From NCBI GenBank assembly GCA_951406725.2, contig OX597831.1, positions 55,428,001 through 55,492,000 on the forward strand: a DNA stretch of 64,000 nucleotides, given 5' to 3'. The position numbers and the translations under genes are program-made. The notes under the pieces are model-generated. The model saw only the letters and a list, made by a program, of their open reading frames with translations. It made no database searches and was not told the origin of the DNA. This document shows positions 981-59,117 of the stretch, in pieces (position 1 is the stretch's first letter; each line of letters begins with the position of its first letter). The stretch comes from Octopus vulgaris. Taxonomy: Eukaryota.

Positions 981-2044
981 AGAGGGAGCAGAGCTCCGCG
1001 AGGGACTGTACTACGCCATTGAAGACAAAATCCCCTTCAGGAGCAATGGACATAAATGTTTCGCCATTTTTGTGGCTTATCAACATCATGTACTTAAACC
1101 AGATTAGAAACGAACTGAATCGTCAATTCATGACTATATACAAATGGTGAAAAAAAAAGAAAAAACAATTGTTGGTCTAACAGCGATTTTCGTTTTCAGC
1201 ATGCAAAACTACAAAACTAAAAAACAATCTGGTGAAAATTTGAAATATTTAAAGTGGTTGGAAGAAATATAAGATCATAAAGATCCCTCACATTTTCTGA
1301 TCATAAAACGAAAGAACGCTTCAGTGAGGTTGTTTCAAAACTCTCTACCCTGACCCCAATGTTTGTTTTGTCTGTCCTCGTATCGTCCCCTCTTTTTCTC
1401 AACCTTATGGTGAATAAAGAAATTCACTCTCTCTCTCTCTTTCTGTATTCCTATTGCTTTTGCTTGTCTAGGCTGAATGGGATAGATGTTTTTGGAATGA
1501 GGTATCGTACAGGTAATTTCCATTTGACAAAAACTGGGGGTTGAAAGCTTGCTTTGTGAACGGGGTGTGTTACTTGTCTGTTGTGTTTATAAGTCTGCTG
1601 CTTTTGTCGTTGCTGTTAATGTTCTCCTACTTTCTTATCCGCCCATGATTTCTCTTCTTTTGTAAAGACGTCATTTAAACATCACATGTTACGCATATCT
1701 GTGGAATGCTCAGTCATTTGCACATTAATTTTATGAGCAGGCTCTTCTATTGATTTCTTTACAAAAGTAACCATTCATTTAGAAAGCAATTCTCTGAAAG
1801 AATTTGATTTTACTCACCAGGAAGAAAACCAACCAACCAACCAATCAGGCAGCTAGCCGAACCAGTGAGTCAACCAACCAAACAAAAAAGCAACAAAGTA
1901 TTACTGTATATATTTTAGCTGTTTTATTTTTATCTGTTTAACATGTCTGTCACTTCTCTGTTTATTTGTTTAGCATGTCTGTCGTTTCTCAGTTTATACA
2001 TTGTGAGTAAGGTCGAGCGACTGCAATGTCTAGCCGGCAGTTAT

Positions 2045-2250
2045 CCAGTACCGAGGGAAATAACCCAGAAATTATAGTCTGTTGGTACTGCTAACAGCTA
2101 GAGGAGAGTCGTATGCTCCCTTGTTCACAGTAAATTTCGGATACAGATCGTGTGTCGATAACCAGCTGGAAAAGATGTTTTCCTGGGGTTAAAAGGTAGT
2201 AACATAGATCTGCGTAGGACAGCCACCTTACGTTGGCAAATACACTTTAC
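2045..2250 (+). mobile_element. Decayed HHR-bearing short element (group 1)
   Basis: ccagta-CCGA[TGA lost]-GGGaaataaCCC-a-GAAA-ttata-GTC-tgttgg, then ccagctgg...cctggggttaaa...gtaaca and a gcca-8nt-tggc hairpin homologous to 25680-25850. Confidence 0.55.
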
Positions 2251-2499
2251 TGTATAATGTTTGATTTTTCACATTTGGTACCTTGAATTCACATTTGGTA
2301 CCCTATCCTCTGTATTTTTTAGCTTTAGCAATAATTTTCCACCCTATCTAGGGGTTGCTTATTCCACCTTCTTTCGATGTTCATAGGGATGTTGCATATT
2401 GCTTATGTTTGTCTCTGAATGATGCCAGATATTGTGTATGCCCTTCCTTGAACAACATTACATAGGAACACAGAAGAATCACAGATATATGAAACTTCA

Positions 2500-12160: not shown

Positions 12161-12608
12161 CACAAATTCCGCCGAGGTCGACTTTACCTTTCATTTTTTT
12201 CGGGATTTGTCCCCCACCGGCGCTTGACAACCGTTGTTGATGTGTTTACGTCGTCGTAACCTAGCGATTCGGCAAGAGATACTGGTACAATAAGTAATAG
12301 GTTTTAAAAAATAATTATTATAGTCGATTCATTCGACTAAAATTCTTCAAGGTAGTGCCCCAGCATGACCGCAGTTTAATGACTGAAACAAGTAAGAGAT
12401 AAAAGAACCCACTGCATGAGTTGCCCAATGCCTATAATGATACTAAGGCGGCCTTTGTGAACTACACTTGAATTTTGTAGAGAACTAAATCTCTCTGAGA
12501 GATTTTGAAATGTATTATTTCTATTTTTGAAATCAGTGAATGTATTTTACTAGAATTCTTATGTTTACAAGAGCTAGATGGGCATCTCCAACTAGCAGGC
12601 CATGCTAC

Positions 12609-12651
12609 TCCAGGCTGATGACGAGCAAAGACTCAGAAACTAGTCTCTGAA
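12609..12651 (+). ncRNA. Minimal type I hammerhead ribozyme
   Basis: tccagg-CTGATGA-c-GAGcaaagaCTC-a-GAAA-C-ta-GTC-tctgaa; palindromic stem III ACTAGT; lies in a ~210-bp element (12590-12805) homologous to 38895-39100. Confidence 0.8.
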
Positions 12652-12966
12652 TGCATGCTTAACTGGGTGGAAGTGCTTATCTCCCCCTTGTAAACATAAG
12701 GACACGGGAAATGTGTCAAGGCCGACAGGAAGCGTTGCTGCTTCGTAGGGCTAAACAGCAATAATATTTCCCCCTTCATGGGACTGTCACATTAAGTTGA
12801 CAGTATACAACTACTTTAACAATTGTTGAGGGTTGAAATATTTTCTAGCCCAGAGTCAGAGGTATGCTGGAACAGTTGTCTTTCTTCTACAAACGAATCT
12901 AAATACAGTATTTTCGGAGGGGAATTATTGCCAGCATATGTTAGGCGTTTTTGACACATACTAGAA

Positions 12967-15960: not shown

Positions 15961-16152
15961 GCTTATGGCCATATCACGTTGAAAGCATCGGTTCTCGTCT
16001 GATCACCGAAGTTAAGCAACGTCGAGCCTAGTCAGTACTTAGATGGGTGACCGCTTGGGAAACCTAGGTGCAGTAAGCATAGCACAGTTCAGCGGTGGTG
16101 CCCCAGCATGACCGCGGCCTTCGGGCTAAAACATTTTTAAGGATTTAAGGAT
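15961..16152 (+). mobile_element. 5S rRNA-derived SINE (SINE3) or 5S retropseudogene with LINE-type tail
   Basis: 15961-16080 is a full-length 5S-like sequence (gcttatggcc...gaagttaagcaac...agtacttagatgggtgaccgcttgggaa...gtaagcat) with no oligo-T terminator; followed by ggtgccccagcatg stem-loop tail and (ttaaggat)x2. Confidence 0.85.
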
Positions 16153-18413: not shown

Positions 18414-20525
18414 ATGTTCTGAGTTCAAATACCGTCGGGGTCGTTTTAACGTATCAGACGCACGGATCTTTTCGGTTTGAACGGCAATTTTTTCTAGCGG
18501 TGTCATATGAAATTACCTTTCATCCTTTCGGAGTCGATAAATTAAGTACCAGTTACGCACTGGAGTTGATGTAATCGTCTTAATCCGTTTGTCTGTCCTT
18601 GTTTGTCCCCTCTGTGTTTAGCCCCTTGTGGGTAGTAAAGAAATAGGTATTTCATCTGACTTTATTTTCTGAGTTCAAATTCCGCCGAGGTCCACTTTGC
18701 CTTTCATCCTTTCGGGGTCGATAAATGTTTATTTGAGTAATTGGAATTCGGAACAGAAAGAAACACAAGCGGCGATTTTTCTCTTACATTTATGTACTAG
18801 ATCTCAGAATTGTTTGTCCACTTTATGTTTAGCCCTTTGTGGGTAGTAAAGAAATAGGTATTTCGTCTGCCGCTACGTTCTGAGTTCAAATTCCGCCGAG
18901 GTCGACTTTGCCTTTCATCCTTTCGGGATCGATAAATTAAGTACCAGTTACGCACTGGAGTTGATGTAATCGTCTTAATCCGTTTGTCTGTCCTTGTTTG
19001 TCCCCTCTGTGTTTAGCCCCTTATGGGTAGTAAAGAAATAGGTATTTCATCTGACTTTATTTTCTGAGTTCAAATTCCGCCGAGGTCCACTTTGCCTTTC
19101 ATCCTTTCGGGGTCGATAAATTTAATACCAGTTGAACACTGAGGTCGAGGTAATCGACTTAACCCCACCCTAAAAATTTATGTTTAGCCCTTTGTGGGTA
19201 GTAAAGAAATAGGTATTTCGTCTGCCGCTACGTTCTGAGTTCAAATTCCGCCGAGGTCGACTTTGCCTTTCATCCTTTCGGGATCGATAAATTAAGTGCC
19301 AGTTACGCACTGGGGTCGATGTAATCGTCTTAATCCGTTTGTCTGTCCTTGTTTGTCCCCTCTATGTTTAGCCCCTTTTGGGGCAGTAAAGAAATAAGAA
19401 AATAAGAATCGTCAGCACGCCGGCCGAAATGCTAAACTGTATTTCGCCCGTCGCTACTTTCTAAGTTCAAATTCTACCGAGGTCGATTTTTCCTTCCATC
19501 CTTTCGGGGTCGATAAATTTAATACCAGTTGAACACTGAGGTCGAGGTAATCGACTTAACCCCACCCTAAAATTTATGGCCTTCTGCTTACAGTAGAAAG
19601 GATTATTATTATTATTATTGCTTTCCGGCTCTTTACGTTCAGAACTCAAATGCCGATGAGGTCGCTTTTGCCTTTGATCCTTTCCGGGTCGATGAAATAA
19701 GTACCAGCTGAGAACTGGGTCGATGTAATCGACTTACACCCTCGCTTAAAATTCCATGCCTTGTAACTATAGTAGAAAGAATTATTATTTGTAACTATAG
19801 TAGAAAGAATTATTATTGCTGTAACTATAGTAGAAAGAATTATTGCTGTTGCAAAGGCGGCGAGCATGGCTGAAGCGTTAGAGCATCAGATAAATATACC
19901 TATTGATGTTTCTTCCAGCTCTTTACATTGTTAGTTCGAATTCCGTCAAAGTCAATTTTACTTTTCATCCTTTCGGGGTCGATAAAGTAAGTACCAACCA
20001 AATATTGGGGCTAATGTAATCAATTAATCCATCTCCCCTAAAATTGCTGACTTTGTTCCAATATTAAAACAACTTTTTACATTATTGTCGTTGTTAAGGC
20101 GGTGAGCTTGGCCAGAGCGTTAGAGCGCCGGTCAAAATGCCTTGAGCCAAAATTCGAATCTATTATCGTAAGCACGTCATAAGAAATGCCTAGTGGTACT
20201 TCTGACTCTTTACTTTCTGGTTCGAAATTCCGCCGAGGGCGACCTTGGCTTTCATCCTTTCGGGGTCGATAAAATACTGGCGCCGAAGTAATCGACTTAG
20301 CCTATCTCTCAAAACTACTGACCTTGTTCCAAAATTTGAAATCATTATAAGACAGCGAAATGGCAAAATCGTTAGCCCACCGGACAAAATGTTTAGCGGC
20401 GTTCAAATTCCGCCGAGGTTGTCTGCATTCCATCCTTTCGAGGTCGATAAAATAAGTACCAGACAAGTCCTGGGGTCGATGTAATCAATTAACTCCCTGC
20501 CTTAAAACATTTCAGGCCTTGTGCC
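18414..20525. repeat. Cluster/tandem array of SINE family A units with local duplications
   Basis: Repeated aaagaaatag|gtatttc junctions near 18646, 18857, 19041 and 19213; unique block 18325-18388 duplicated at 18746-18810. Confidence 0.85.
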
Positions 20526-21259: not shown

Positions 21260-22030
21260 GTTATTTAGAACGTTGCTTATTGTGAACATGCATTGCTGGC
21301 GCACCGTCTGTGCACACGCCAACAACGTGCTCCCAGTTTATGCCATGCGTGTTAAAGAATTGGATCCACTTTCTGGGATACATCGTTTGTAGCGGTTCGG
21401 GTGTTACGGGTTTCGCAAAAAAGGAATTCATCTTAGAGATGCTTGTTATGCACATAACGTACATAAACACAAAGTTGTGCTAAATCCACCACGTCAGTGG
21501 TTTCATCAATTTGGATGGCGACATAGTTAAATATTGATGTTTTTTATCTTTGAGATGACCTGAGACAAAATATTATCAGGCATCTCAGCGATTTTTTGAC
21601 TGACGGTGTTGTTGGAAAGTGAAACCTGTTTAAGCTTCTATAGTTCGGACGTTCCGAGCACGATGCCCTCCAAAGTTATGAGGTCGTTTTTTTTTTTTGC
21701 TTTTTTTGGGGGGGTTCAGCAATTTTCCTTGAAACCTCGAAGGAGGCTTTCAGACCAGAAACAATGTCCTGCATATACATTCCTGTGTCAGCAATCCTGG
21801 ATTTGACCAATTTGTCATCTTGGTGTCTGAAAAATTCCTCGTCTTGGTTGACTGCACTGGGATGTTTCATTTCCAAATGTCTCTTTAGCCTGCTGGGCTT
21901 GAGCGGAGAAGCTGCTAATATATCAGAGCACAAAACACACTGTGGTTTTTCCACTCCACCAGCAGTAAGCACGGTGAAACTGAAGCTCAAATATGACTTG
22001 TCATATCTCATTTTCTTTGTAAAAGACATT
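21260..22030 (-). pseudogene. hAT Buster/Charlie-type transposase remnant
   Basis: RYDKSYLSFSFT...PQCVLCSDIL...KPSRLKRHLEMKH (BED finger); WEHVVGVCTDGAPAM (catalytic D motif); probable TIR gtttgggaaccaagg near 24968-24982. Confidence 0.85.
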
Positions 22031-22132
22031 CTACAAATAAATATAACAATATGTAACTGTTGGACTGTAAATGCACAGAATTTTGTACTATTTCATTCTG
22101 TTGAGAAAACTTTGTTACTTTTACCAGTATAA

Positions 22133-22210
<78 letters not shown>

Positions 22211-22217
<7 letters not shown>

Positions 22218-23065
22218 AGGGATATTAGCCAACCGAATATGGCTAGGGACAGGGCAGGGTGGTGGGGGTGTCACTGTTGCATTTAGCCCCAGGCGAACAT
22301 CAACGTCACCAGATAGGCCTGACGCCATCACGGCGTCCTCTATCTTGCAAAGGGAGATCATTCACCAAGAAGCAGATACCACACACAAGGTGTATTGCTT
22401 ATTATCAACGTGTGGTAGGCATCGCTTCTCGATGAACGACCAACTGTGCAAGATATATATAAGGATTTTCAAGTAAATACATTTACTGATTTCGAAAATC
22501 TGTTCGACAGCAATAATAATTCTCTAAATGAGATGTAGACAGTGACTGCTCCATAATATAAGGGATATTAGCCAACCGAATATGGCTAGGGACAATGCAA
22601 CAGTGACACCCCCACCACCCTGCCCTGTCCCTAGCCATATTCGGTTGGCTAATATCCCTTATATTATGGAGCAGTCACTGTCTATATCTCATTTAGAGAA
22701 TTATTATTGCTGTCGAACAGATTTTCGAAATCAGTAAATGTATTTACTTGAAAATCCTTATATATATCTTGCACAGTTGGTCGTTCATCGAGAAGCGATG
22801 CCTACCACACGTTGATAATAGGCAATACACCTTGAAACCTAGGTCCGTGTGTGGTATCTGCTTCTTGGTGAATGATCTCCCTTGCAAGATAGAGGACGCC
22901 GTGATGGCGTCAGGCCTATCTGGTGACGTTGATGTTCGCCTGGGGCTAAATGCAACAGTGACACCCCCACCACCCTGCCCTGTCCCTAGCCATATTCGGT
23001 TGGCTAATATCCCTTATATTATGGAGCAGTCACTGTCTATATCTCATTTAGAGAATTATTATTGC
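22211..23065. mobile_element. Inverted pair of >1-unit tandem copies of a 355-bp HHR element, inside (TA)n
   Basis: Right arm periodicity 22594 to 22949 (355 bp); left arm is the reverse complement (343 bp); junction at 22593/22594; (TA)n on both sides. Confidence 0.85.
22806..22851 (+). ncRNA. Type I hammerhead ribozyme, U3-A8 core variant
   Basis: cacacg-TTGATAA-t-AGGcaatacaCCT-t-GAAA-C-ctag-GTC-cgtgtg; perfect 6-bp stem I. Confidence 0.8.
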
Positions 23066-23068
23066 TAT

Positions 23069-24035: not shown

Positions 24036-24667
24036 CCGCTGTAACAGCCTAGAATATACCCCTGCCCAGACGATACCCGGAGTTAGTCTAAGCTAGCCCC
24101 GACTATAGCCCTGTCCAGACTTATACCTCGTGCTTGCGGCCAAATAACACAGATGCACCTCACTTATAAAAGTTGCCTCAGAACATATATAAAATTTGAT
24201 ACCAATCGATGAAGAATTAAAAGTTACATGTAAATTCCGATTTAAACATAGCAATTTAGAATTATCAAATGCAACTATTCAATGTACCAATATAAACCCA
24301 ATGTATAGGTGGATTAGGAAAAAATTGACGACTCGCGCATGCTGCGCAGCGCACCTATACTATGAGTCATAGCCAAGACTCGCGCAAATATGGCCATTCG
24401 TGTTGGGTTTATATTGATATATTTTAAAGTATTTTGAATTTGATAATTCTAAATTGCTATGTTTAAATCGAAATTTACATGTAACTTTTAATTCTTCATC
24501 GAGTGATATTAAATATGTGTTCTGAGGCAACTTTTATAAGTGAGGTACATCTGTGTTATTTGTCTGCAAGCATGGGGTATATTCTGGCCTGGTTATCTGG
24601 AGGGGGTATAGTCTGCGCTAGCCCAGACGAGCTCCGGATAGGGGTATAATCTGGGCTGTTACACTGC
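24036..24667. mobile_element. Fold-back non-autonomous DNA element
   Basis: Arms of about 280 bp are reverse complementary (tgtaacagcc...ggctgttaca; cacttataaaagttgcctcagaaca / tgttctgaggcaacttttataagtg). Confidence 0.8.
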
Positions 24668-25487: not shown

Positions 25488-25514
25488 TATATATATATAC
25501 ATATATATATATAT

Positions 25515-25910
25515 AAAGTATAGAAGCCATCTTAATATGGCTAACCACAAAGGGGAGGGGGTGTTACTGTAGCTTTATAGCCCCAGGGGATCATCGTCTC
25601 CAGCTGGCTTTAGACAGCATTTCAGTGCCCTTGAAGTATTTGCAAATACTTCAAGGGCACTGAAATGCTGTCTAAAGCCAGCTGGAGACGATGATCTCCT
25701 GGGGCTATAAAACTACAGTAACACCCCCTCCCCAAATACTTCAAGGGCACTGAAATGGTGTCTAAAGCCAGCTGGAGACGATGATCTCCTGGGGCTATAA
25801 AGCTACAGTAACACCTCCTCCCTTTTGTGGTTAGCCATATTAAGATGGCTTCTTTACTTTACATTATCGAGCGATTACTGTTTACATCTCATTCTGAGAT
25901 TTAATAATTA
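25515..25910. mobile_element. Fold-back plus tandem duplicate of a group 1 element 3' module, inside (TA)n
   Basis: Spacer-less palindrome centred at gaagtatttg|caaatacttc (about 25642); ~90-bp tandem repeat; single copy at 54230-54350. Confidence 0.85.
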
Positions 25911-26665: not shown

Positions 26666-26700
26666 GTTTAACGTTTCGAGCGGAGCTCTTCATCGGAAAC
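26666..26700 (-). ncRNA. Minimal hammerhead motif (C4 variant) in a 200-bp element (26568-26769) flanked by (TA)n
   Basis: gttt-CCGATGA-a-GAGCtccGCTC-GAAA-CGTT-aaac. Confidence 0.7.
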
Positions 26701-30322: not shown

Positions 30323-31685
30323 GAGGGTGTCCACAAAGTCTACGTACATGGGGATTAACACATACTTTTAAAATAAATCAATTTTATTTAATTATAATGT
30401 TAATAAATAATATTTTCAAAGTGATTGCCATCATTTTTCAATGCACAACTTGATGCGCCTTGCAAAATTCAGGTGAACTTGATTAAATAAGTCTACATTG
30501 CCATCAATTTCAGCACACTGACTGGTAATGCGTTCTCTCGTGTGTTTTAAATCTGTAATCTTTATTGTAATCTTTCTCTTTCAACATAGCCCAGAAAAAG
30601 AAATCAAGGGGAGAAAGGTCTGGTGTACGAGGGGACCTTTCCATATGAGCCCTTCTTTCAATCCAGTGAGGAAAAGTGTCATTAAGCCAATCTCTAACAG
30701 TTGTGGCAAAATGGGTAGGGGCCCCATCCTGCTGAAAACAATTCGGAAGGCCCTCGCCTAGGCGCTCAATTTGAGATATTAATTTGTCTCTCAATATGTT
30801 TACATAAGTCTCATCCGTTACATGTTCAATGAAGAAGGGTCCTAGAACATGAGCTTTCCACAAACCACACCACACCATCACCTTTTTGCTGCCTTGCTGT
30901 TTGGATGGATCCATCCAATGTGGATTACCTCGAGACCAGTATAGAAGATTCTGTCTGTTGACCTCACCATTTACATAAAACGTAGCTTTGTCACTGAACA
31001 ACAAAGTTTTTCTTAAAATTGATATTTTCATCCAATTTATCTGAAAACCATTCGCACGTCTACATTCGTCTACCAGGGTCGTCTTCATTTAAGTGAAACA
31101 ATATTTGTAGGTTGTATCGATGAAACTTTTCCTCAACCAGCATTTTGTGGATGGTTGGTTTTGGAACACCTAACACCGTGGATGTCCGACGAAGTGATTT
31201 CTTTGGGCTAGCAGAAACTTTAGCCATGACAGCCTCTTTCGTTTCATCTGAAGTTTTTGGTCGCCCGGAACGGGGTTTATTCAAAACACTGCCTGTTTCT
31301 TTAAATTTCTTGATCAATTTCCCGACGGCAGTAAAAACAATAGATTACCTATAAGTCGAAGATTAAATTCTTCCGCAATTTTGAGATAAGACCATCCCTC
31401 TCGTCCACTTAATAATACTAACTCGATTCTTTCTTCTTTAGACAGATCCATCATTCGATCTGGTATTTTTCTTCTTTAGACAGAGCCATCATTCGATCTG
31501 GGATTTTTCTTCTTTAGACAGAGCCATCATTCGATCATCTGTAGAAAAAATAACAAATAAATTTAGAAAAGTAAAGTATTTCTTTTTACTTAATTTAAAC
31601 AAAAGTAAAAAAGGAAAATTATTATTTCTTATATCTGTTTATGTTATGGTTTTATTCCATGTACCCAGACTTCGTGGACACCCTA
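30323..31685 (-). mobile_element. Tc1/mariner element, DD40D (rosa/DD41D-like), frameshifted transposase
   Basis: TIRs agggtgtccacaaagtct / agacttcgtggacaccct; KFKETGSV..RSGRP, FSDKATF, FQQDGAP, PDLSPLDFF; 40 residues between second and third D. Confidence 0.9.
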
Positions 31686-34039: not shown

Positions 34040-36694
34040 TGTTACGAAATGTGTGAATATCTTCTCTGCACTGTTTGGGTGCAAGAAGCAATCACTATCC
34101 GTTGCCTTTAATAATCCAGATTCTACCAGTCAGAAACAACAAGACGCAGACGTAAAAAATATATATCTACTTTATTCTCTTATGACAGTAACAAATAAGT
34201 GGTATATCTGGTATCCCTTTGGTATAGATGTGTCAGAGCTGAACTTTATCGCTGTAGAATTTACAGTGTTCAAATGCTAACGACACTGGTCAAAGATGGC
34301 GTCCGGAGAAAGGAAGATGATGTGGTCGGCAACAAATGTCAGGGAGAAACGAAGATAATACGCGTCTTCTTCTATGAAAAGGCTGACTGCTGCTATCAAA
34401 TCCGGACAGAGAGAAATATACGTGTTGTACCTTCGATAGCCGTGTCTCAAGTCACTGCCTACTGGACGCTGGTGGTCAACGTCCTACGCTCCCCTTGCCT
34501 CGCGGCTAAACTGCCACGTAGGCAAATGGTCCTACTTCCGGTGGTGAAAAGCACCAACCCCGCACGCGCGAAACAGAAATGGACGGTGCGCGAGCGCGCA
34601 CCGTTATATAGGATCACTACAAAGCTCCCCTCCAGTGCCTAAGCACGACACAAAATTCCTTGTAGTGACTTTAAAACTCAAGGTGGACACCAGATAACCA
34701 AATAGCACACAATATAATAAAAATGGCAAAATTTACATCATACACAAGAAATTTACCAAAAGGAAAAAAGAGAAAAAATACTCAAAATGAGCAAAAATCA
34801 AAAGTGCATGCGTGAAAGTGGATACGTCACAAAGCATAGAGCCTTCCGCTGTAGGGAGCGGAAGGTAGGCAAACCTACAGTTAATAAACCTAGGCGAAGT
34901 TAAAATCCAACTCCTCTAAAGGTGGTTGATCCTGCGAAATAACAGTTAAATCAATTGCTGCAGGAGAGGAAATTGGAATCGACAGATAGATCGCCAGTAA
35001 CACAAAAGGCAGACAGTGCTTCAGCTGAAAGTGTAAGGTTAGCAAGGTGACAGTGCAAACATGCTGGTGTGATGCGCGGGACAGATAATTTTCTCTGTTA
35101 ATTGCGTGACCAACAGGGGTCTAACAGGGAAAAAATTACGCCTATACATAGGCGCAGCGCATGTGAACATCCGACGTTCTTTGAGTCGGGAAAAGAACTA
35201 AGCTAACGCAAACGTGTTGCAAAAACAAGGCAGTACACGTGCTGAGCAATGGTGCATGAATGCAATAGGGCTTGCCAGACCGAAAAACAGCAATGAATAT
35301 GCCATGGTTAATGTAGGAACAAAAGTGTGACATGCTGGCGCGTTATAATGGACAAACAACCCTCTCTATGTATACGTGACCCCTAGGGTCTTACAGAAAT
35401 GAGGTGTGTCCACAAAGGCAAATTTAGCATGGAAAAAAAAAGCGAGAAAAGCATGTGTGACGTATGAATGTGAGAGAGATAGCATTTATGTGTGTACGTG
35501 TGTGCGACAGAAATACAAACAAGGTGAATGCGAGCAAAAATAAAAACACAGCGCATAGGAAAAAAGTCTCTCAGGGCTATTTCAGACAAGATGGAGTTAG
35601 TTTACCAGTCCGTAATAGCCTGATACACAATAGCAGTTCGTTCTGTAACAGAATGTTGAAATCACAAATGCAGATGCCGATTGAACACATATCGTGTAGC
35701 GGTTGTAGCTTCGATGCTGTGACAGGTTAAATCGTTACAGAAGATCTCGCAGGTAGACTGTGCTGTTAATTCTTGGTGTGCTATGCACGAACAGCGTGAA
35801 AGCTAAACTTCCGCGAGTTGCTATTTACATCTTGTTGAGGTCGACGGTGTTGATAGGCGACGGTGGTGGAGGCGACTGTGGTGGACTTGAGACACATTGT
35901 TCTTAGTGGTGATGGCGACGAAGATAACGACGACGTGAAGTCGAAAGACGACGATGGCGATGACGGTAGAGAAAAGGCATCGATGATATGATGGCGTCCG
36001 TCATTATTGCTGAAGAATAAGAAAGGCTCCTTCTATAACTGTTGAGGGGACCGGAAACAAATCGTCGAAAGATGATGACTGCGTAGAGTTGATCGTGTTC
36101 CGACTTGGCAGAAAAACTGGATTTCTTTGTTGTGAAGTGATCTCTGGTTTTAGACGAGAATCACGTCGGGGGTCACCAGTGTTCCGACTTGTGTGAATAT
36201 CTTCTCTGCACTGTTTGGGTGCAAGAAGCAATCACTATCCGTTGCCTTTAATAATCCAGATTCTACCAGTCAGAAACAACAAGACGCAGACGTAAAAAAT
36301 ATATATCTACTTTATTCTCTTATGACAGTAACAAATAAGTGGTATATCTGGTATCCCTTTGGTATAGATGTGTCAGAGCTGAACTTTATCGCTGTAGAAT
36401 TTACAGTGTTCAAATGCTAACGACACTGGTCAAAGATGGCGTCAGGGAGAAACGAAGATAATACGCGTCTTCTTCTATGAAAAGGCTGACTGCTGCAATC
36501 AAATCCGGACAGAGAGAAATATACGTGTTGTACCTTCGATAGCCGTGTCTCAAGTCACTGCCTACTGGACGCTGGTGGTCAACGTCCTACGCTCCCCTTG
36601 CCTCGCGGCTAAACTGCCACGTAGGCAAATGGTCCTACTTCCGGTGGTGAAAAGCACCAACCCCGCACGCGCACCGTTATATAGGATCACTACA
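34040..36694 (-). mobile_element. Complete non-autonomous LTR retrotransposon (Gypsy-type)
   Basis: LTRs 34040-34621 and 36180-36694 (TG...CA); PBS TGGTGACCCCCGACGTGAT; PPT ggaggggag near 34625-34633; 4-bp TSD cagg; 1.56-kb decayed internal region with no recognisable pol. Confidence 0.9.
36160..36178 (-). promoter_or_regulatory. Primer binding site complementary to tRNA-Trp 3' end
   Basis: Plus strand atcacgtcgggggtcacca directly next to the LTR. Confidence 0.85.
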
Positions 36695-37080
36695 CAGGCA
36701 ACTTTATCGCTGGTCACAATTTACGATCTTTTTTTTTTCTTTTCATTTGAAAAGGAAACTGTGGCTGGAGAAGAGGTGTCTGTCGGAGTGTACGTTCCAA
36801 AAAAGATGGAAGCATGTTGCACGAGTGTTGTGCGTGCAAGGAACCGTGTGAATAGACGGGAAAAAAAAGGTATCAGCGGTAGATCGGGGCTTGTGGGATC
36901 GGAGCGTAACTTGATCATCGCTTCATTTGTATTGTTTTTGTACAGTGTATTCCATTCGATTTTTTATGTATTGTATTTTATTTTTAAAGTCACATTTATG
37001 TAAAATCATATCGATTCACTGATCCCATCAGTTGTACTATCCATATCTATGTTTGGCCCCTGGTGGGCAATAAAGAAATT

Positions 37081-37634
37081 CGTATTTCGTCTGCCGCTAC
37101 GTTCTGAGTTCAAATTCCGCCGAGGTTGACTTTACCTTTCATCCTTTCGGGGGTCGATGAATTAAGTACCAGTTACCCACTGGGGTCAATATAATCGTCT
37201 TAATCCGTTTGTCTGTCCTTGTCGGGCCTCTCTGTGTTTAGTCCCTTGTGGGTAGTAAAGAAATAGGTATTTCGTCTGCCGCTACGTTCTGAGTTCAAAT
37301 TCCACCGAGGTTGACTTTACCTTTCATCCTTTCGGGGTTGATGAATTAAGTACCAGTTACCCACTGGGGTCGATGTAATCGACTTAATCCGTTTTTCTGT
37401 CCTTGTCTGTCCTCTCTGTGTTTAGCCCCTTGTGGGTAGTAAAGAAATAGGTATTTCGTCTGCCGCTACGTTCTGAGTTCAAATTCCGCCGAGGTTGACT
37501 TTGCCTTTCATCCTTCCGGGGTCGATGAATTAAGTACCAGTTACCCACTGGAGTCGATATAATCGACTTAATCCGTTTTTCTGTCCTTCTTGGTCCTCTC
37601 TGTGTTTAGCCCCTTGTGGGTAGTAAAGAAATAG
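37081..37634 (+). repeat. Three tandem headless SINE A units (~184 bp)
   Basis: Units start gtatttcgtctgccgctacg at 37082, 37267 and 37451. Confidence 0.9.
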
Positions 37635-38776: not shown

Positions 38777-39037
38777 CTAATGTAGGATAAACATTTTTTC
38801 GGGAAAAAAACTTCATCAATGGCCAGCATATCAAAGAATACCTTTAAAGGTTAAATTTATAATATATATATATATATAAAGTGGTGGTTTGTTGCTGTTG
38901 CCAACTTAATGTTGCAGTCCCAGGAAAGGGAAGAATGCTACTGCTATTTAACTCCAGTTGGCTATGTAACACAAGCGTTCTGTGTCCTTAAGTTTTCAAA
39001 CAGGGGAGATAAGCACCTTCACCCAGCAAAGCCAGCA

Positions 39038-39080
39038 TCCAGAGACTAGTTTCTGAGTCATTGCTCTTCATCAGTCTGGA
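39038..39080 (-). ncRNA. Minimal type I hammerhead ribozyme
   Basis: tccaga-CTGATGA-a-GAGcaatgaCTC-a-GAAA-C-ta-GTC-tctgga; perfect 6-bp stem I. Confidence 0.85.
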
Positions 39081-39100
39081 GTAGCTTGGCTTCCTAGCGG

Positions 39101-41040
39101 ATTTTATTTTTATTAGGACAATAAATGCCATACACAGATGGTACGATACAGGACAATACATAAAAAAAAAAACGTTATAATGAGTTCGAATGATGCTTTG
39201 TTCTTTTTTAAATTTTTATGAAATAATTAGATTTAATTATCGTCTTTTTTTCCTTTTAAGGGAGGGGATTATACCCGGTTGCCTCAGCGGCCCAGCGACT
39301 GCCCCTTTCCTTTTTTTTTAATGCAGATTAAGTAGAGTTACTTGCACCCAGCTTTCTTAACATAGCCTTCCATCTTTCATCAAACACACTTTGCGACAGG
39401 ATCCTCTTCTCCATCCCTACCTCGCTCTTCAGGTGATATCTGAAGAATTGTAGCAAACCAGGGCCAGAGATGAAGGATCCCGTCACGAGTCCTTGCATTC
39501 TAGTCTTCCACACACATTCTTTCAACACAGCAACTGTACAGAAAAAACATACCTCACCTTCCTTTGAGTGTCCAGTGGGCGGTACAATCATTATTATAGA
39601 TTCAGCCGATAGCTGTACTCTTCCTAAATGCGACAACACCTGTTCGACGTAAATCATCTAGCCTGACAGCTCCCGACAATGTACAAGGGCGTGCTGGACG
39701 GTTTCATCGTCCAGCCCACGTCTTGGACATGTCGTTGGCACTGACATTCCGTGCCTGGGTAACTTATCTCGAACAGGTAAAGCATTCCTGTAACACTGCC
39801 AGGTCAGGGATTTTTGGTAATTACCCAAATACCCTGGCCCGAAAGTATTTTTGAACAAGTTGGTGAGTTGGTTCTCATCGAACCCCAGAGCTTCTCCTAG
39901 AGCGTCATCGTTGTTCTGCTCTACCAACCCTCTATACAAAACCGAGGCGGCGTTCCCACTGCCGGCCTTGCCCGTCTTGTGGATAAGCACAAGTGCCTGT
40001 CGACACTCCTTTTGCCATTCAGTCAGATTACGTCTTTTAATAAAACCGGGTTTAAATCGCTCCAGAGAAGCTAGTCGCAGAAAGAAATCCTCTGCTAGCG
40101 GATTCCATACCTTATCTCACCTTCCAGGTAACGCCAGAGATGCCTCAGCCCCCAACTCATGTCTGCGCATCATTAGCCAGGGCATCCCCAACCATCATTT
40201 AGCGGTTCCTGGCAGCAAACGGAGCGCCTCACAAGCGGCTTCCCCTCTTCCACAAAAAGCGGAAAAGGAGGCGTTCCAACTGGTTTAGCCGCAAATCAGG
40301 AGAAGGGACAACGGTCAGGCGGTAGGTGATTACAGATGCAATAAACAACTGTACCACCTCTGCCCTTCCTTTCAAGGATAGAGCCTTTCCAGACCAAGTC
40401 CGTACTAGAGCTTCTACCTTGTCTGCCACCTCGCTCCAATTCTTCTCCGTCCGGGAGTCTGGTCCAAACCAAACTCCAAACAACCTAACAGAACCATCTG
40501 TCCAGTGACACACGACACTGGACGATATCGACTTGCTCCTCTAGATGCCGTGGTGCAAGCCAATGGACTTGTCCTTGTTAACTTTTGCCCCTGCCACCGC
40601 CTCGTATCCTTTGATAGCGTCCTCTACACAAGGTAGCTGCGCTTCATTGGACTCGATGAAGGTGACGTCATCCGCATAAGCAGAAACCGACTTACAGCAT
40701 CCGATTTCACTAGGGTTGCCTCCCAACTTCTCCAGCTTCCGCAACAATGGCTCAAAAGCCAACACGTACAGAAGCGGAGACAGGGGATACGCTTGATCGA
40801 AAATAGCTCCGACAGGTAACCGTTTATCTGGACGGTAGATTTAATGCCGCTATACATGGTGGAGATCTACCTACGGAAGTACGAGCCCAGCCCAGCCGCT
40901 TCGAGGGCCGCCGCCAGGTACTGGTGGTCTACCCTATCAAACGCTTTACTTTGGTCTAAATGGACCATGGCCCCCACCTTTGCCGGTTAATTTACCCACC
41001 CTGTCTAAGGTGTAGCGGATAAGGTGAAGATTGTCCTGAA
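39101..41040 (-). mobile_element. 5'-truncated Tx1/L1-clade LINE (RT plus C-terminal domain, disrupted) with A-rich tail
   Basis: SAYADDVT, FGVWFG, WSGKALSLKGRAEV, CPR..DETVQHALVHC; SINE A head abuts its 5' end at 41041-41100. Confidence 0.9.
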
Positions 41041-53894: not shown

Positions 53895-54229
53895 TGCATA
53901 TATGGGTACAGGACGTTACCAACGGTGCAAATAACATGAAATACGTAAACAGACGATGGAAAACAGGACAAGTAAGCACAGAGAAAGGACCCTTCATCAG
54001 TTGTCAGCTGTCTTTCTACTCCTCATTTCAAACATTCAACGACAATATGAGTCTTCGAAGACAGTTGCTCCTATAAATACCAAAATAAAATCTGGGATTT
54101 ATGGAGGGTCAAAGCTGGGAGCAAAAGCAGGGCAGCGGAGACATACAAGGAAACCGAACGAAAACAAACGTGGAGGGTCGTTAGACCAGGACGAGGGTAA
54201 AATACCGATATATATATATATATATATAT

Positions 54230-54350
54230 AAAGTATAAAAGCCATCTCAATATGGCTAACCACAAGGGGGGTTACTGTAGCTTTTTAGCCCCAGGAGATC
54301 ATCGTCTCCAGCTGGCTTTAGACACACTTTCTGTGCCCTTAAAGTATTTG
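54230..54350 (-). mobile_element. Group 1 3' module copy adjacent to (TA)n
   Basis: Collinear with 25515-25642 and has the same end, aagtatttg. Confidence 0.8.
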
Positions 54351-55684
54351 CCCCCGCCTCCCACCATGCCTTCTATGAAAAGTCCTTGTGAAAGTCCTAA
54401 GTGTCCTATAACGCTGGAGGATAAGTAGGCAATGATAAAACGTCATGAAAAAGTTGCAGCGATTGCACGATCTTTTGAGAGTAAATCGGACAACTGTATC
54501 GACGATTGTGCATAATAAAGACAAGATTTTAACATATATCACATCTGAAGCACCAGAGATGAGGAACACAGTCTTAAACAAGAAAAGAAGCAAAATCTTT
54601 GAAGAAATGGAAAGTCTTCTAACTATTTGGATTGATAGGCAGAATCGCCAGAATGCTACTCTTAGTCAAGAGATCCTTCAGGAGAAAGCGTTGTCTTTGG
54701 GGACCTGAAGGAAAAATATCCAGATAAGAAAGATATAGAGTTCAAGGCAAGTCAAAGATGATATATGAGATTTAAAAAACGGAGACGTTATCACTTCCTT
54801 AAGAAGCAAGGTGAAAGCGCATCAGTTGACAAACATGCAGCAGCGAATTTTCCTGCGACATTGAAGAAAATCATTTTCACACATTTGAAAAAAATATCTT
54901 GCTATGTTCGAAGATATGGATCCAAATGCTCAACGCTTTTCTAAGATTATGGGGGCTTATCACGAAGCTTTTGCTCCTTATAATGTAATCCTTGACGAAA
55001 AGAAGACAGTTCAAGGCACTCTTGACTAGTTTTTTTTAAACGCATCGAACGACAACGAGAACTGCCAGAATCAGCTGATGACATTGACGTCGACGATCCT
55101 CGGCCATCTAGGGGCGGCGAGCTGGCAGAATCGTTAGCACGCTGGGCGAAATGCGTAGCCGTATTTCGTCTGCCGTTACGTTCTAAGTTCAAATTCCGCC
55201 AAGGTCGACTTTGCCTTTCATCCTTTGGGGGTCGATAAATAAAGTACCAGTTACGCACTGGGGTCGATGTAATCGACTTGATCCGTTTGTCTGTCCTTGT
55301 TTGTCCCCTCTATGTTTAGCCCCTTGTGGGTAATAAAGAAACAGATACTCGGCCATCTACATCTACAATGTAAACATCACCGAATTTTACGTATTGGTAA
55401 ATTTAAAATACTTTATTATTTCTTTTTTTTTTTTCTTTACTTTATTACAAAATAATAATTATTTGCTTCTAAGCTTAAAATAGGTTTTTATTAACCGTGT
55501 CTTACTGAAATTGTAAGCTTAAAAAATACTTTTATTAACCATGTCTTATCGAAAATGCATTCATAGAGTGCTGGGGAACGGCTATTAGCAGTTTAGGCTA
55601 GGCTAGCCTGGCCTATAGACACGCAATTCGACTTAAGTCGTGTCTCCTGGAACCAATTAACGACTTAGAGTGAGGTATACCTGT
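54351..55684 (+). mobile_element. Tigger/pogo element remnant (CENP-B HTH), internally deleted, with SINE A insertion 55110-55342
   Basis: NRTTVSTIVHNKDKI...EEMESLLTIWIDRQNR..LSQEILQEKALSL; end gaggtatacctg|ta; SINE flanked by ctcggccatcta TSD. Confidence 0.85.
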
Positions 55685-58479: not shown

Positions 58480-59117
58480 TAATACGGTCGAGAAATGAAT
58501 CGGTCTGGTTTCGGAGAAGCGACGAACAAACTTCATGTCTGCACATTTTGTAATTTTCATTCAAATCGTGTGGTACCCATTTGTCGAGTTTTTTTTTAAA
58601 TTTATGATCGCATGCACATAGTTACAGGCAGTTTTCTGGCTAACTTGAAGTTCTTTTGCCAGTTCTCGAGTGATTTTACGTGGATCTTTCTCAATGATGA
58701 CCTTTAATTGACCGTTATCAATGACAGATGGGCGTCCACTACGCTCACGATCTTCAAGGTTCAGGTTTCCACTGCGAAATCGTTTAAACCATTTTCGAAC
58801 TGACCCTCACTGGTCATTTCCTCCCCAAACGTTTCACTGATATTGGAAACAGTTTCAGCTGCTTCTCGTCCTTTTTTGGAGTTGAAGAGCAAAATTGCTC
58901 GAATATCGCACTTTGACAGTTCCATTTCAGATGATTGTAACAACGGTTTTTAAAAAAATCAATGTTAATGTATTGATGCATTTGGGCAAGTCTATGTCTG
59001 TATTATCAAACAATTGCAAAAAAAAGTTTTTAAAAAATTCAAAACTCTACAAAAACCACTCGAGAACTGGCAAAATTCATGGTTCAAAACATCGCTTACT
59101 TTTTACTCAACCTGATA
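58480..59117 (-). pseudogene. mariner transposase 5' half
   Basis: IRAILLFNSKKG, WFKRFRSGNLNLED.ERSGRP, LDKWVPHDL, FLDRII; TIR tttttactcaacctgata. Confidence 0.85.

Follow-up and report, generated by a model that had tools for sequence, protein, structure and literature searches.

Why should a repeat that encodes no protein carry, downstream of its hammerhead ribozyme, a second RNA structure kept across diverged lineages? This question is raised by a group of repeats in the window, by which we mean the whole 64,000-nt stretch of Octopus vulgaris DNA that was analysed. Penelope-like elements (PLEs) have been proposed as the helpers of animal retrozymes, the RNA signal being unnamed in the available portions of the two reports (PMC7229834; 10.64898/2026.07.22.740005), and the window offers a bounded, covarying candidate for such a signal beside Penelope-type end points.

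The repeat family

Six loci of the window, as recovered by self-comparison together with a covariance model, contain ten copies, complete or partial, of a non-coding, hammerhead-bearing repeat of about 350 nt. The six copies cited in the original prediction, named here by their positions in it (2180, 12745, 22940, 25788, 38897 and 54240), were all found where it had placed them and on the strands it gave. Its description of them as six diverged copies applies to four that differ pairwise and to one pair, 25788/54240, whose members are 91% identical while the remaining 14 pairs are 48-66% identical, so that five lineages are represented. Four more copies or parts of copies are found at 22216 (-), 22594 (+), 25514 (-) and 25643 (+). 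The copies are as follows.

1901..2256, +: diverged copy with a decayed hammerhead (GAAATTATAGTC at 2068-2079) and the hairpin domain at 2139-2237
12486..12818, +: near-full monomer, the reference copy (333 of about 349 nt); contig cover goes up at 12472-12487 and drops beyond 12823
22216..22594, -: copy of the 22940 insertion in inverted orientation, with terminal (TA)n
22594..23066, +: partial tandem with a unit of 355 nt (22594 to 22949), then (TA)n; its parts are a decayed hammerhead (22812-22845), the domain (22894-23004) and an extension of about 50 nt (23017-23066)
25514..25642, -: inverted hammerhead-less copy (H1-H4), with terminal (TA)n
25643..25909, +: partial tandem that lacks the hammerhead (25643-25732, followed by 25733-25861), an extension of about 48 nt to about 25909, then (TA)n
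38877..39097, -: 5′-truncated copy with an intact hammerhead core (39074-39044), H1, a shortened H2 and H4, and terminal (TA)n
54229..54351, -: hammerhead-less copy consisting of nothing but H1-H4 and the end motif, with terminal (TA)n

The length of the unit, 346-355 nt across copies, can be read from several of them. A 10-nt direct repeat (1901-1910 and 2247-2256, 346 nt apart) brackets the 2180 copy, and the direct repeat at 22594-23066 has a spacing of 355 nt. When 12440-12900 was compared with the contigs of four public runs, matches at 80% likeness were found in 3135, 2839 and 3998 contigs from three organisms and in 276 contigs of run X20, a presumed RNA run whose contigs cannot demonstrate transcription or circles; these thousands of contigs concern one lineage, that of the reference copy. 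Contig cover was restricted to about 12486-12818, and a head-to-tail joint from 12818 to 12486, with 16 letters between, was present in all four runs (7, 11, 5 and 1 contigs, as counted among the 15 joints listed of 45), which gives a unit of about 349 nt. No array with two complete hammerheads in succession was seen within the window. The segment that follows the end of the 22940 unit aligns with the 5′ part of the 12745 copy (score 83, against a shuffled maximum of 50), while the 2180 and 38897 copies align to this segment no better than shuffles do.

Among the 124 reading frames scanned in the window, those over the repeat copies match no Pfam domain. An autonomous element with a reverse transcriptase and a GIY-YIG domain was found neither in the copies nor adjoining them, none of the 124 frames having a GIY-YIG match and the sole reverse transcriptase match being a LINE-type remnant. 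By their DNA features (type I hammerhead, tandem units, no coding frame), the repeats are animal non-LTR retrozymes and thus an element of a known kind; the new part is the hairpin domain, which is apparently undescribed. As far as the available text of the retrozyme papers goes (PMC7229834; 10.64898/2026.07.22.740005), those elements are likewise tandem units that encode no protein and have a type I hammerhead, low G+C and many solo or partial copies, and mobilisation by PLEs has likewise been proposed for them; the mussel units measure 350-390 bp against 346-355 nt here, and the unit size found here falls in the 150-450 bp range of non-LTR retrozymes. In the same portions of these papers, no conserved domain but the hammerhead is described and the sequences are called species-specific, whereas the octopus repeats contain a separate covarying domain. 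Beyond the retrozymes as described there, they also show a pair of Penelope-type end points and hammerhead-less copies.

The hammerhead and its predicted rod

The reference copy shows the hammerhead and its surroundings most completely.

12610..12650, +: type I hammerhead, with core CTGATGA at 12615-12621, GAAAC-TA-GTC at 12636-12645 and a predicted cut after 12645
12558..12700, +: predicted long rod whose tip carries the hammerhead; its basal helix pairs 12558-12571 to 12687-12700, with pair probability 1.0

Four of the cited six have a hammerhead upstream of the domain. Its core is intact at 12615 (+) and 39074 (-), where stems I and II and a palindromic loop 3 are also present, and the hammerhead is decayed at 22812 (+) and about 2050 (+); the assignment is a descriptor match, Rfam having reported no hammerhead at these sites. 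The module had been placed about 100 nt downstream of the hammerhead, and in these four copies GGGGCTAAA does lie 88-105 nt after the predicted cut, with H1 at +48 to +59. This spacing does not extend to the 25788 and 54240 copies, which lack a hammerhead and start about 12 nt before H1.

The basal helix of the rod is predicted, with different letters, in the 22940 and 2180 copies as well (probabilities 0.99 and 0.97), and the 38897 copy is truncated at the rod base. The rod is based on single-copy folds, which were used because MAFFT/RNAalifold misaligned it in three full monomers. In the copies concerned, the predicted rods span 12558-12700, 22765-22891 and 2000-2131, with the basal helix retained in three lineages. 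The stretch after the hammerhead had been called poorly conserved, which is true of its letters (25% invariant columns in three lineages), but it is predicted to form the 3′ strand of the rod that encloses the hammerhead.

Variants of the reference-copy hammerhead in run X13 look matched, although unphased: 12614 G/A occurs with 12646 C/T in similar shares, and loop 3 (12641-12642) changes from TA to AT with the palindrome retained. A second family, with minimal hammerheads of the GAAAC-GTY form typical of PLEs, is present at 26696 (-), 52229 (-) and 50210 (+). The model of the hairpin domain has no match behind any of these three, so that the domain appears specific to the retrozyme-type repeat group. 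Another possible decayed hammerhead of yet another family (stem II GCCA/TGGC) lies at 1083 (-), within a region with an LTR-element-like reading frame, with no hairpin domain after it.

Anatomy of the hairpin domain

The domain occupies about 120 nt just inside the element end and comprises hairpins H1, H2, a variable H3 and H4 (12700-12803 in the reference copy).

12700..12717, +: hairpin H1, GACAC / GTGTC, 6 bp; 30 of 30 cells paired in five lineages (hand anchoring), two-sided changes in two pairs
12720..12752, +: hairpin H2, with an outer stem closed by GGCT, an inner stem and a variable loop, then an AAA linker
12753..12783, +: H3 region, an RGYRCAGTR-like motif and a pyrimidine-rich linker; 23% invariant columns
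12784..12803, +: hairpin H4 with a constant 8-nt loop
12804..12818, +: AC-rich spacer and the proximal end motif CTTTA

The motif first described is real and constitutes the 3′ half of this domain, which starts about 45 nt upstream of the reported start: H1 precedes it, and GGGGCT is the 3′ arm of H2. The terminal hairpin with its constant 8-nt loop is present in all six copies, as had been observed. The 38897 copy has lost most of H2, and some lineages fold the H3 region into a hairpin, with no pairing demonstrated in common. In the 22940 copy, a single-sequence fold in longer context favours alternative pairings for H1 and H4, which means that the consensus fold is not the lowest-energy one in every copy. 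Most copies allow a pseudoknot to be drawn between the pyrimidine linker and the AAGG that precedes H1; it is poor in one copy and likely due to chance.

H1, the outer stem of H2 and H4 retain their letters, loop length and loop motif across lineages that are about 50-65% identical. Invariant columns over three lineages amount to 47% in H1 and 56% in H4, compared with 37% in the hammerhead core region and 25-27% in the rod strands, percentages that rest on three rows, which are few. The letter retention of H1 and H4 would suit a surface read by a protein better than a plain scaffold.

A combined motif pattern occurs at five places in the window and at none in each of 100 shuffles; its source was the copies themselves, and three of the cited six (12745, 38897 and 54240) do not match it. 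An unrelated short repeat, which forms tandem runs with a period of about 184 nt at 18625-19375 (-) and 37060-37613 (-), also contains GGGGCTAAA, and for this reason GGGGCTAAA by itself is not diagnostic. The Rfam search that had been suggested yielded no family for the domain at gathering score, the scan of the whole window returning a 5S rRNA and nothing else; scans by E-value over the 12745, 22940, 25788 and 38897 copies gave sub-threshold matches alone, and the 2180 and 54240 copies were covered by the gathering scan. The domain is undescribed in the searched literature on retrozymes and PLEs, while supplements, Repbase and Dfam may already contain the family or a similar domain.

Covariation and held-out lineages

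Over the whole domain in the six copies, 92% of 111 cells are paired, compared with 25-44% in slid controls, and two-sided changes occur in 8 of 20 pairs. This number of two-sided pairs was matched by 1 of 500 shuffles and the covariation score by none of 500, figures that are not probabilities, since the structure was derived from the same, related sequences, in an alignment of five lineages with two rows that are near duplicates. The covariation claimed in the original prediction thus belongs to the domain as a whole; the 8-nt-loop hairpin is weak when taken alone, the 4-bp core of H4 having one two-sided pair and one broken cell, a result equalled or exceeded in 67 of 500 shuffles and not significant.

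A fairer test than shuffling is to hold out a lineage. With models built from four other copies, the 12745 copy scored 42.1 bits with structure and 26.1 without it, and the 38897 copy 21.9 and 15.8 bits, respectively. Four viral decoys, chosen by sequence pattern, scored about 16 bits without structure; with structure, one fell to 11 bits and three were no longer listed. Among the 40 differences listed of 110 (unphased), 17 within the family fall in 12700-12807: 2 in stems, 4 in the H2 loop, 11 in the linker and none in H4. Both stem differences in this list (12706 and 12745) replace a weak or broken pair of the reference copy with a Watson-Crick pair. Single-copy folding z-scores are weak (0 to -2.1). 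Taken together, the covariation, the held-out models and the absence of an Rfam family support the claim that a Penelope-related repeat with a hammerhead contains a structured cis-element so far unannotated.

Several candidates were set aside. Viral contigs contained six loci with one pattern and none with another, and metagenomes contained none and then two; on reading, all eight loci proved to be chance matches with no hammerhead or other hairpins, and their sole use was as decoys. Weak model matches in the window at 24361 (14.6 bits) and 31602 (14.0 bits) showed no likeness on reading. Peaks of contig depth over H1 and H4 were excluded as evidence because contig depth is unable to rank parts.

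Insertion ends

Of eight copies that end after H4, six stop 7-22 nt beyond the hairpin, at the CTTTA motif or close to it, and the other two extend about 50 nt further; (TA)n adjoins six of the eight. Both compound insertions (22216-23066 and 25514-25909) have one end at the proximal motif and the other about 50 nt further on, and both consist of a partial tandem with an inverted copy on its 5′ side. Loose contig ends at 12815-12818 were excluded as proof of an end point, as the reference copy itself stops there.

The 5′ ends are equally regular in the hammerhead-less copies, since two independent insertions (25643/25733 and 54351), with three junctions between them, start 12 nt before H1. This shared start coincides with the foot of the predicted hammerhead rod. 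Stalling or fold-back at the rod foot is the simplest reading of it, a separate short family being a bolder one.

In PLEs, an optional tail of 30-40 bp and inverted 5′ copies have been described (PMC8557442, in the part available), and the accessible portion of PMC11167929 reports from work in vitro that two internal start sites of reverse transcription delimit the tail, that insertion occurs into AT-rich targets, that mutating the hammerhead does not prevent insertion and that the RNA needed, or binding region, lies downstream of the hammerhead start. By analogy with that system, the domain would lie immediately upstream of the first start site, and judged from sequence the end pattern of the copies is the Penelope ‘tail’ pattern. 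The likeness extends further in what is available of these sources: in the pLTR/tail of PLEs, including PAc of the green anole (PMC11167929; PMC8557442; PMC4209133), the hammerhead is followed by about 100-170 nt ending at one of two points, as here, and the AC-rich end sequence of two octopus copies also has a parallel in this region; partial tandems, an inverted 5′ copy and AT-rich or (TA)n targets are common to the repeats and to endonuclease-positive PLEs. Unlike PLEs as described there, the repeats have no reading frame, their hammerhead is canonical-looking and not minimal, and the extension is about 50 nt instead of 30-40. With the PAc stem-loop shown in supplement 1 of PMC11167929, as far as available, no sequence likeness was seen by eye.

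Proposed function and competing explanations

We put at roughly 55% the probability that the H1-H4 domain acts, as RNA, as the signal by which a Penelope-like reverse transcriptase, produced from another place in the genome, recognises the repeat and starts copying it. A reverse transcriptase recognition signal was among the roles originally suggested, and it is the best reading, by analogy, on account of the position of the domain just inside the insertion ends and of the copies that keep it without a hammerhead. Under this proposal, tandem units would be transcribed and cut by the hammerhead to monomers, perhaps to circles. A Penelope-like reverse transcriptase/endonuclease, supplied in trans, would bind H1-H4, whose stems conserve both letters and pairing, and nick AT-rich DNA, and reverse transcription might start a few bases downstream, primed either at CTTTA or where the extension stops. 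The enzyme may often drop off or fold back at the rod foot, which would yield the hammerhead-less H1-H4 copies. Among the points against recognition of this kind are that the scanned frames yielded no autonomous partner, that the extension of about 50 nt exceeds the 30-40 bp of published Penelope tails, and that the domain lies wholly upstream of the putative start sites, unlike the required RNA of the anole element, which reaches past its starts.

A bolder form of the proposal, which we regard as possible but doubtful, is that H1-H4 and the end motif are a complete, portable landing pad of about 125 nt for a Penelope-like reverse transcriptase, sufficient without the hammerhead for copying into (TA)n DNA. 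If this were true, the landing pad would be the missing cis signal linking animal retrozymes to PLEs, and the hammerhead-less copies would amount to a Penelope-driven SINE. In LINE/SINE pairs, the LINE protein recognises 3′ stem-loops that the two elements share. These are likewise small structured RNAs located by the start of reverse transcription and kept by a non-autonomous element, but they are element-terminal, whereas the octopus domain consists of several hairpins, lies within the tandem unit, with an optional extension after it. The candidate domain and the short copies, natural deletion forms in which the hammerhead is dropped and the domain kept, bring retrozyme recognition within reach of a test that uses a single purified protein and a handful of short RNAs, and confirmation would define an RNA partner of a telomerase-related reverse transcriptase.

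An unlikely alternative is that the hairpins merely keep the monomer or circular RNA compact, stable or free of misfolding with the hammerhead, with no specific protein involved. The entire monomer is indeed predicted to be highly paired, as has been reported for retrozyme circles (PMC7229834, in the part available), and much of the variation does no more than preserve pairs. The rod, however, varies freely in its letters, while H1, the H2 outer stem and H4 show the retention of letters and loops described above, and domain-only copies exist, both of which count against this explanation.

The signal might instead act as DNA, either as a site for the GIY-YIG endonuclease or as an internal promoter for the next tandem unit, which we consider rather improbable. 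There are precedents in the available parts of two sources, since the Drosophila virilis Penelope endonuclease, as related in PMC11167929, required tail sequence for recognition, and an internal promoter has been reported in Penelope (PMC2377424). Folding energies, moreover, favour neither one strand nor RNA over DNA, and the 5′ end common to two independent hammerhead-less insertions could mark a DNA feature, although it coincides with the rod foot. The matched two-sided changes indicate a folded single strand, and in four monomers no B box or octamer was found, with one A-box-like match located in a region that one of the copies has deleted.

Still less probable is a role of the domain as tertiary partner or regulator of the hammerhead, the former being another of the original suggestions, or as a second self-cleaving RNA cutting just before H1. 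Such a role would account for the fixed distance of H1 from the cut and for three 5′ junctions, in two insertions, at one base before H1; three of six listed opposite-strand joints also touch 12688-12694, each in one contig per run, and the inverted repeat of the rod could explain them. The hammerheads, however, are canonical type I-looking and not minimal, sit at the far tip of a separate rod, possess a loop 1 and a loop 2 of their own, and do not occur in two of the cited copies; the suggestion of a tertiary partner is not supported. A relaxed search for a nested double pseudoknot with a J4/2 catalytic C gave one poor candidate for an HDV-like topology among 12 strands, the other 11 having none, and no Rfam ribozyme family was matched.

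The least credible explanation, a coding relic from the start of a Penelope-like frame or a captured LINE 3′ tail, can draw on the anole element, whose reading frame begins in the hammerhead (PMC11167929, in the part available), on one copy that reads from the hammerhead ATG through H4 with a single stop, and on a possible reading of H4 as A-T/I-L-R/S-W, but the frame between GGGCTA and H4 is preserved in three of six copies only, no relative of greater length was found for the peptide in 81 candidates at E 0.01 (weak evidence), and the domain is internal to the tandem unit and followed by more element sequence, with no copy joined to the LINE remnant of the window (39661-40840), which no model match adjoins. 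Even if the recognition reading should fail, the repeat would still be a well-defined, high-copy and apparently unannotated family.

Surroundings of the repeats

The window has 38% G+C and abundant microsatellites, dispersed repeats and transposon remnants, among which are short repeats that we take to be reminiscent of octopus SINEs. The 5S rRNA is a lone gene or copy at 15961-16079 (+; 104.7 bits). Transposon remnants comprise a Tc5/Tigger DNA-binding domain (54439-54705, +), the LINE reverse transcriptase with zf-RVT (39661-40840, -), HTH transposase pieces (31063-31344, -, and 58564-58806, -) and a BED-type zinc finger (21679-22092, -). A G+C-rich segment is duplicated at 34502 and 36605 (+), about 2.1 kb apart, with near-identical reading frames.
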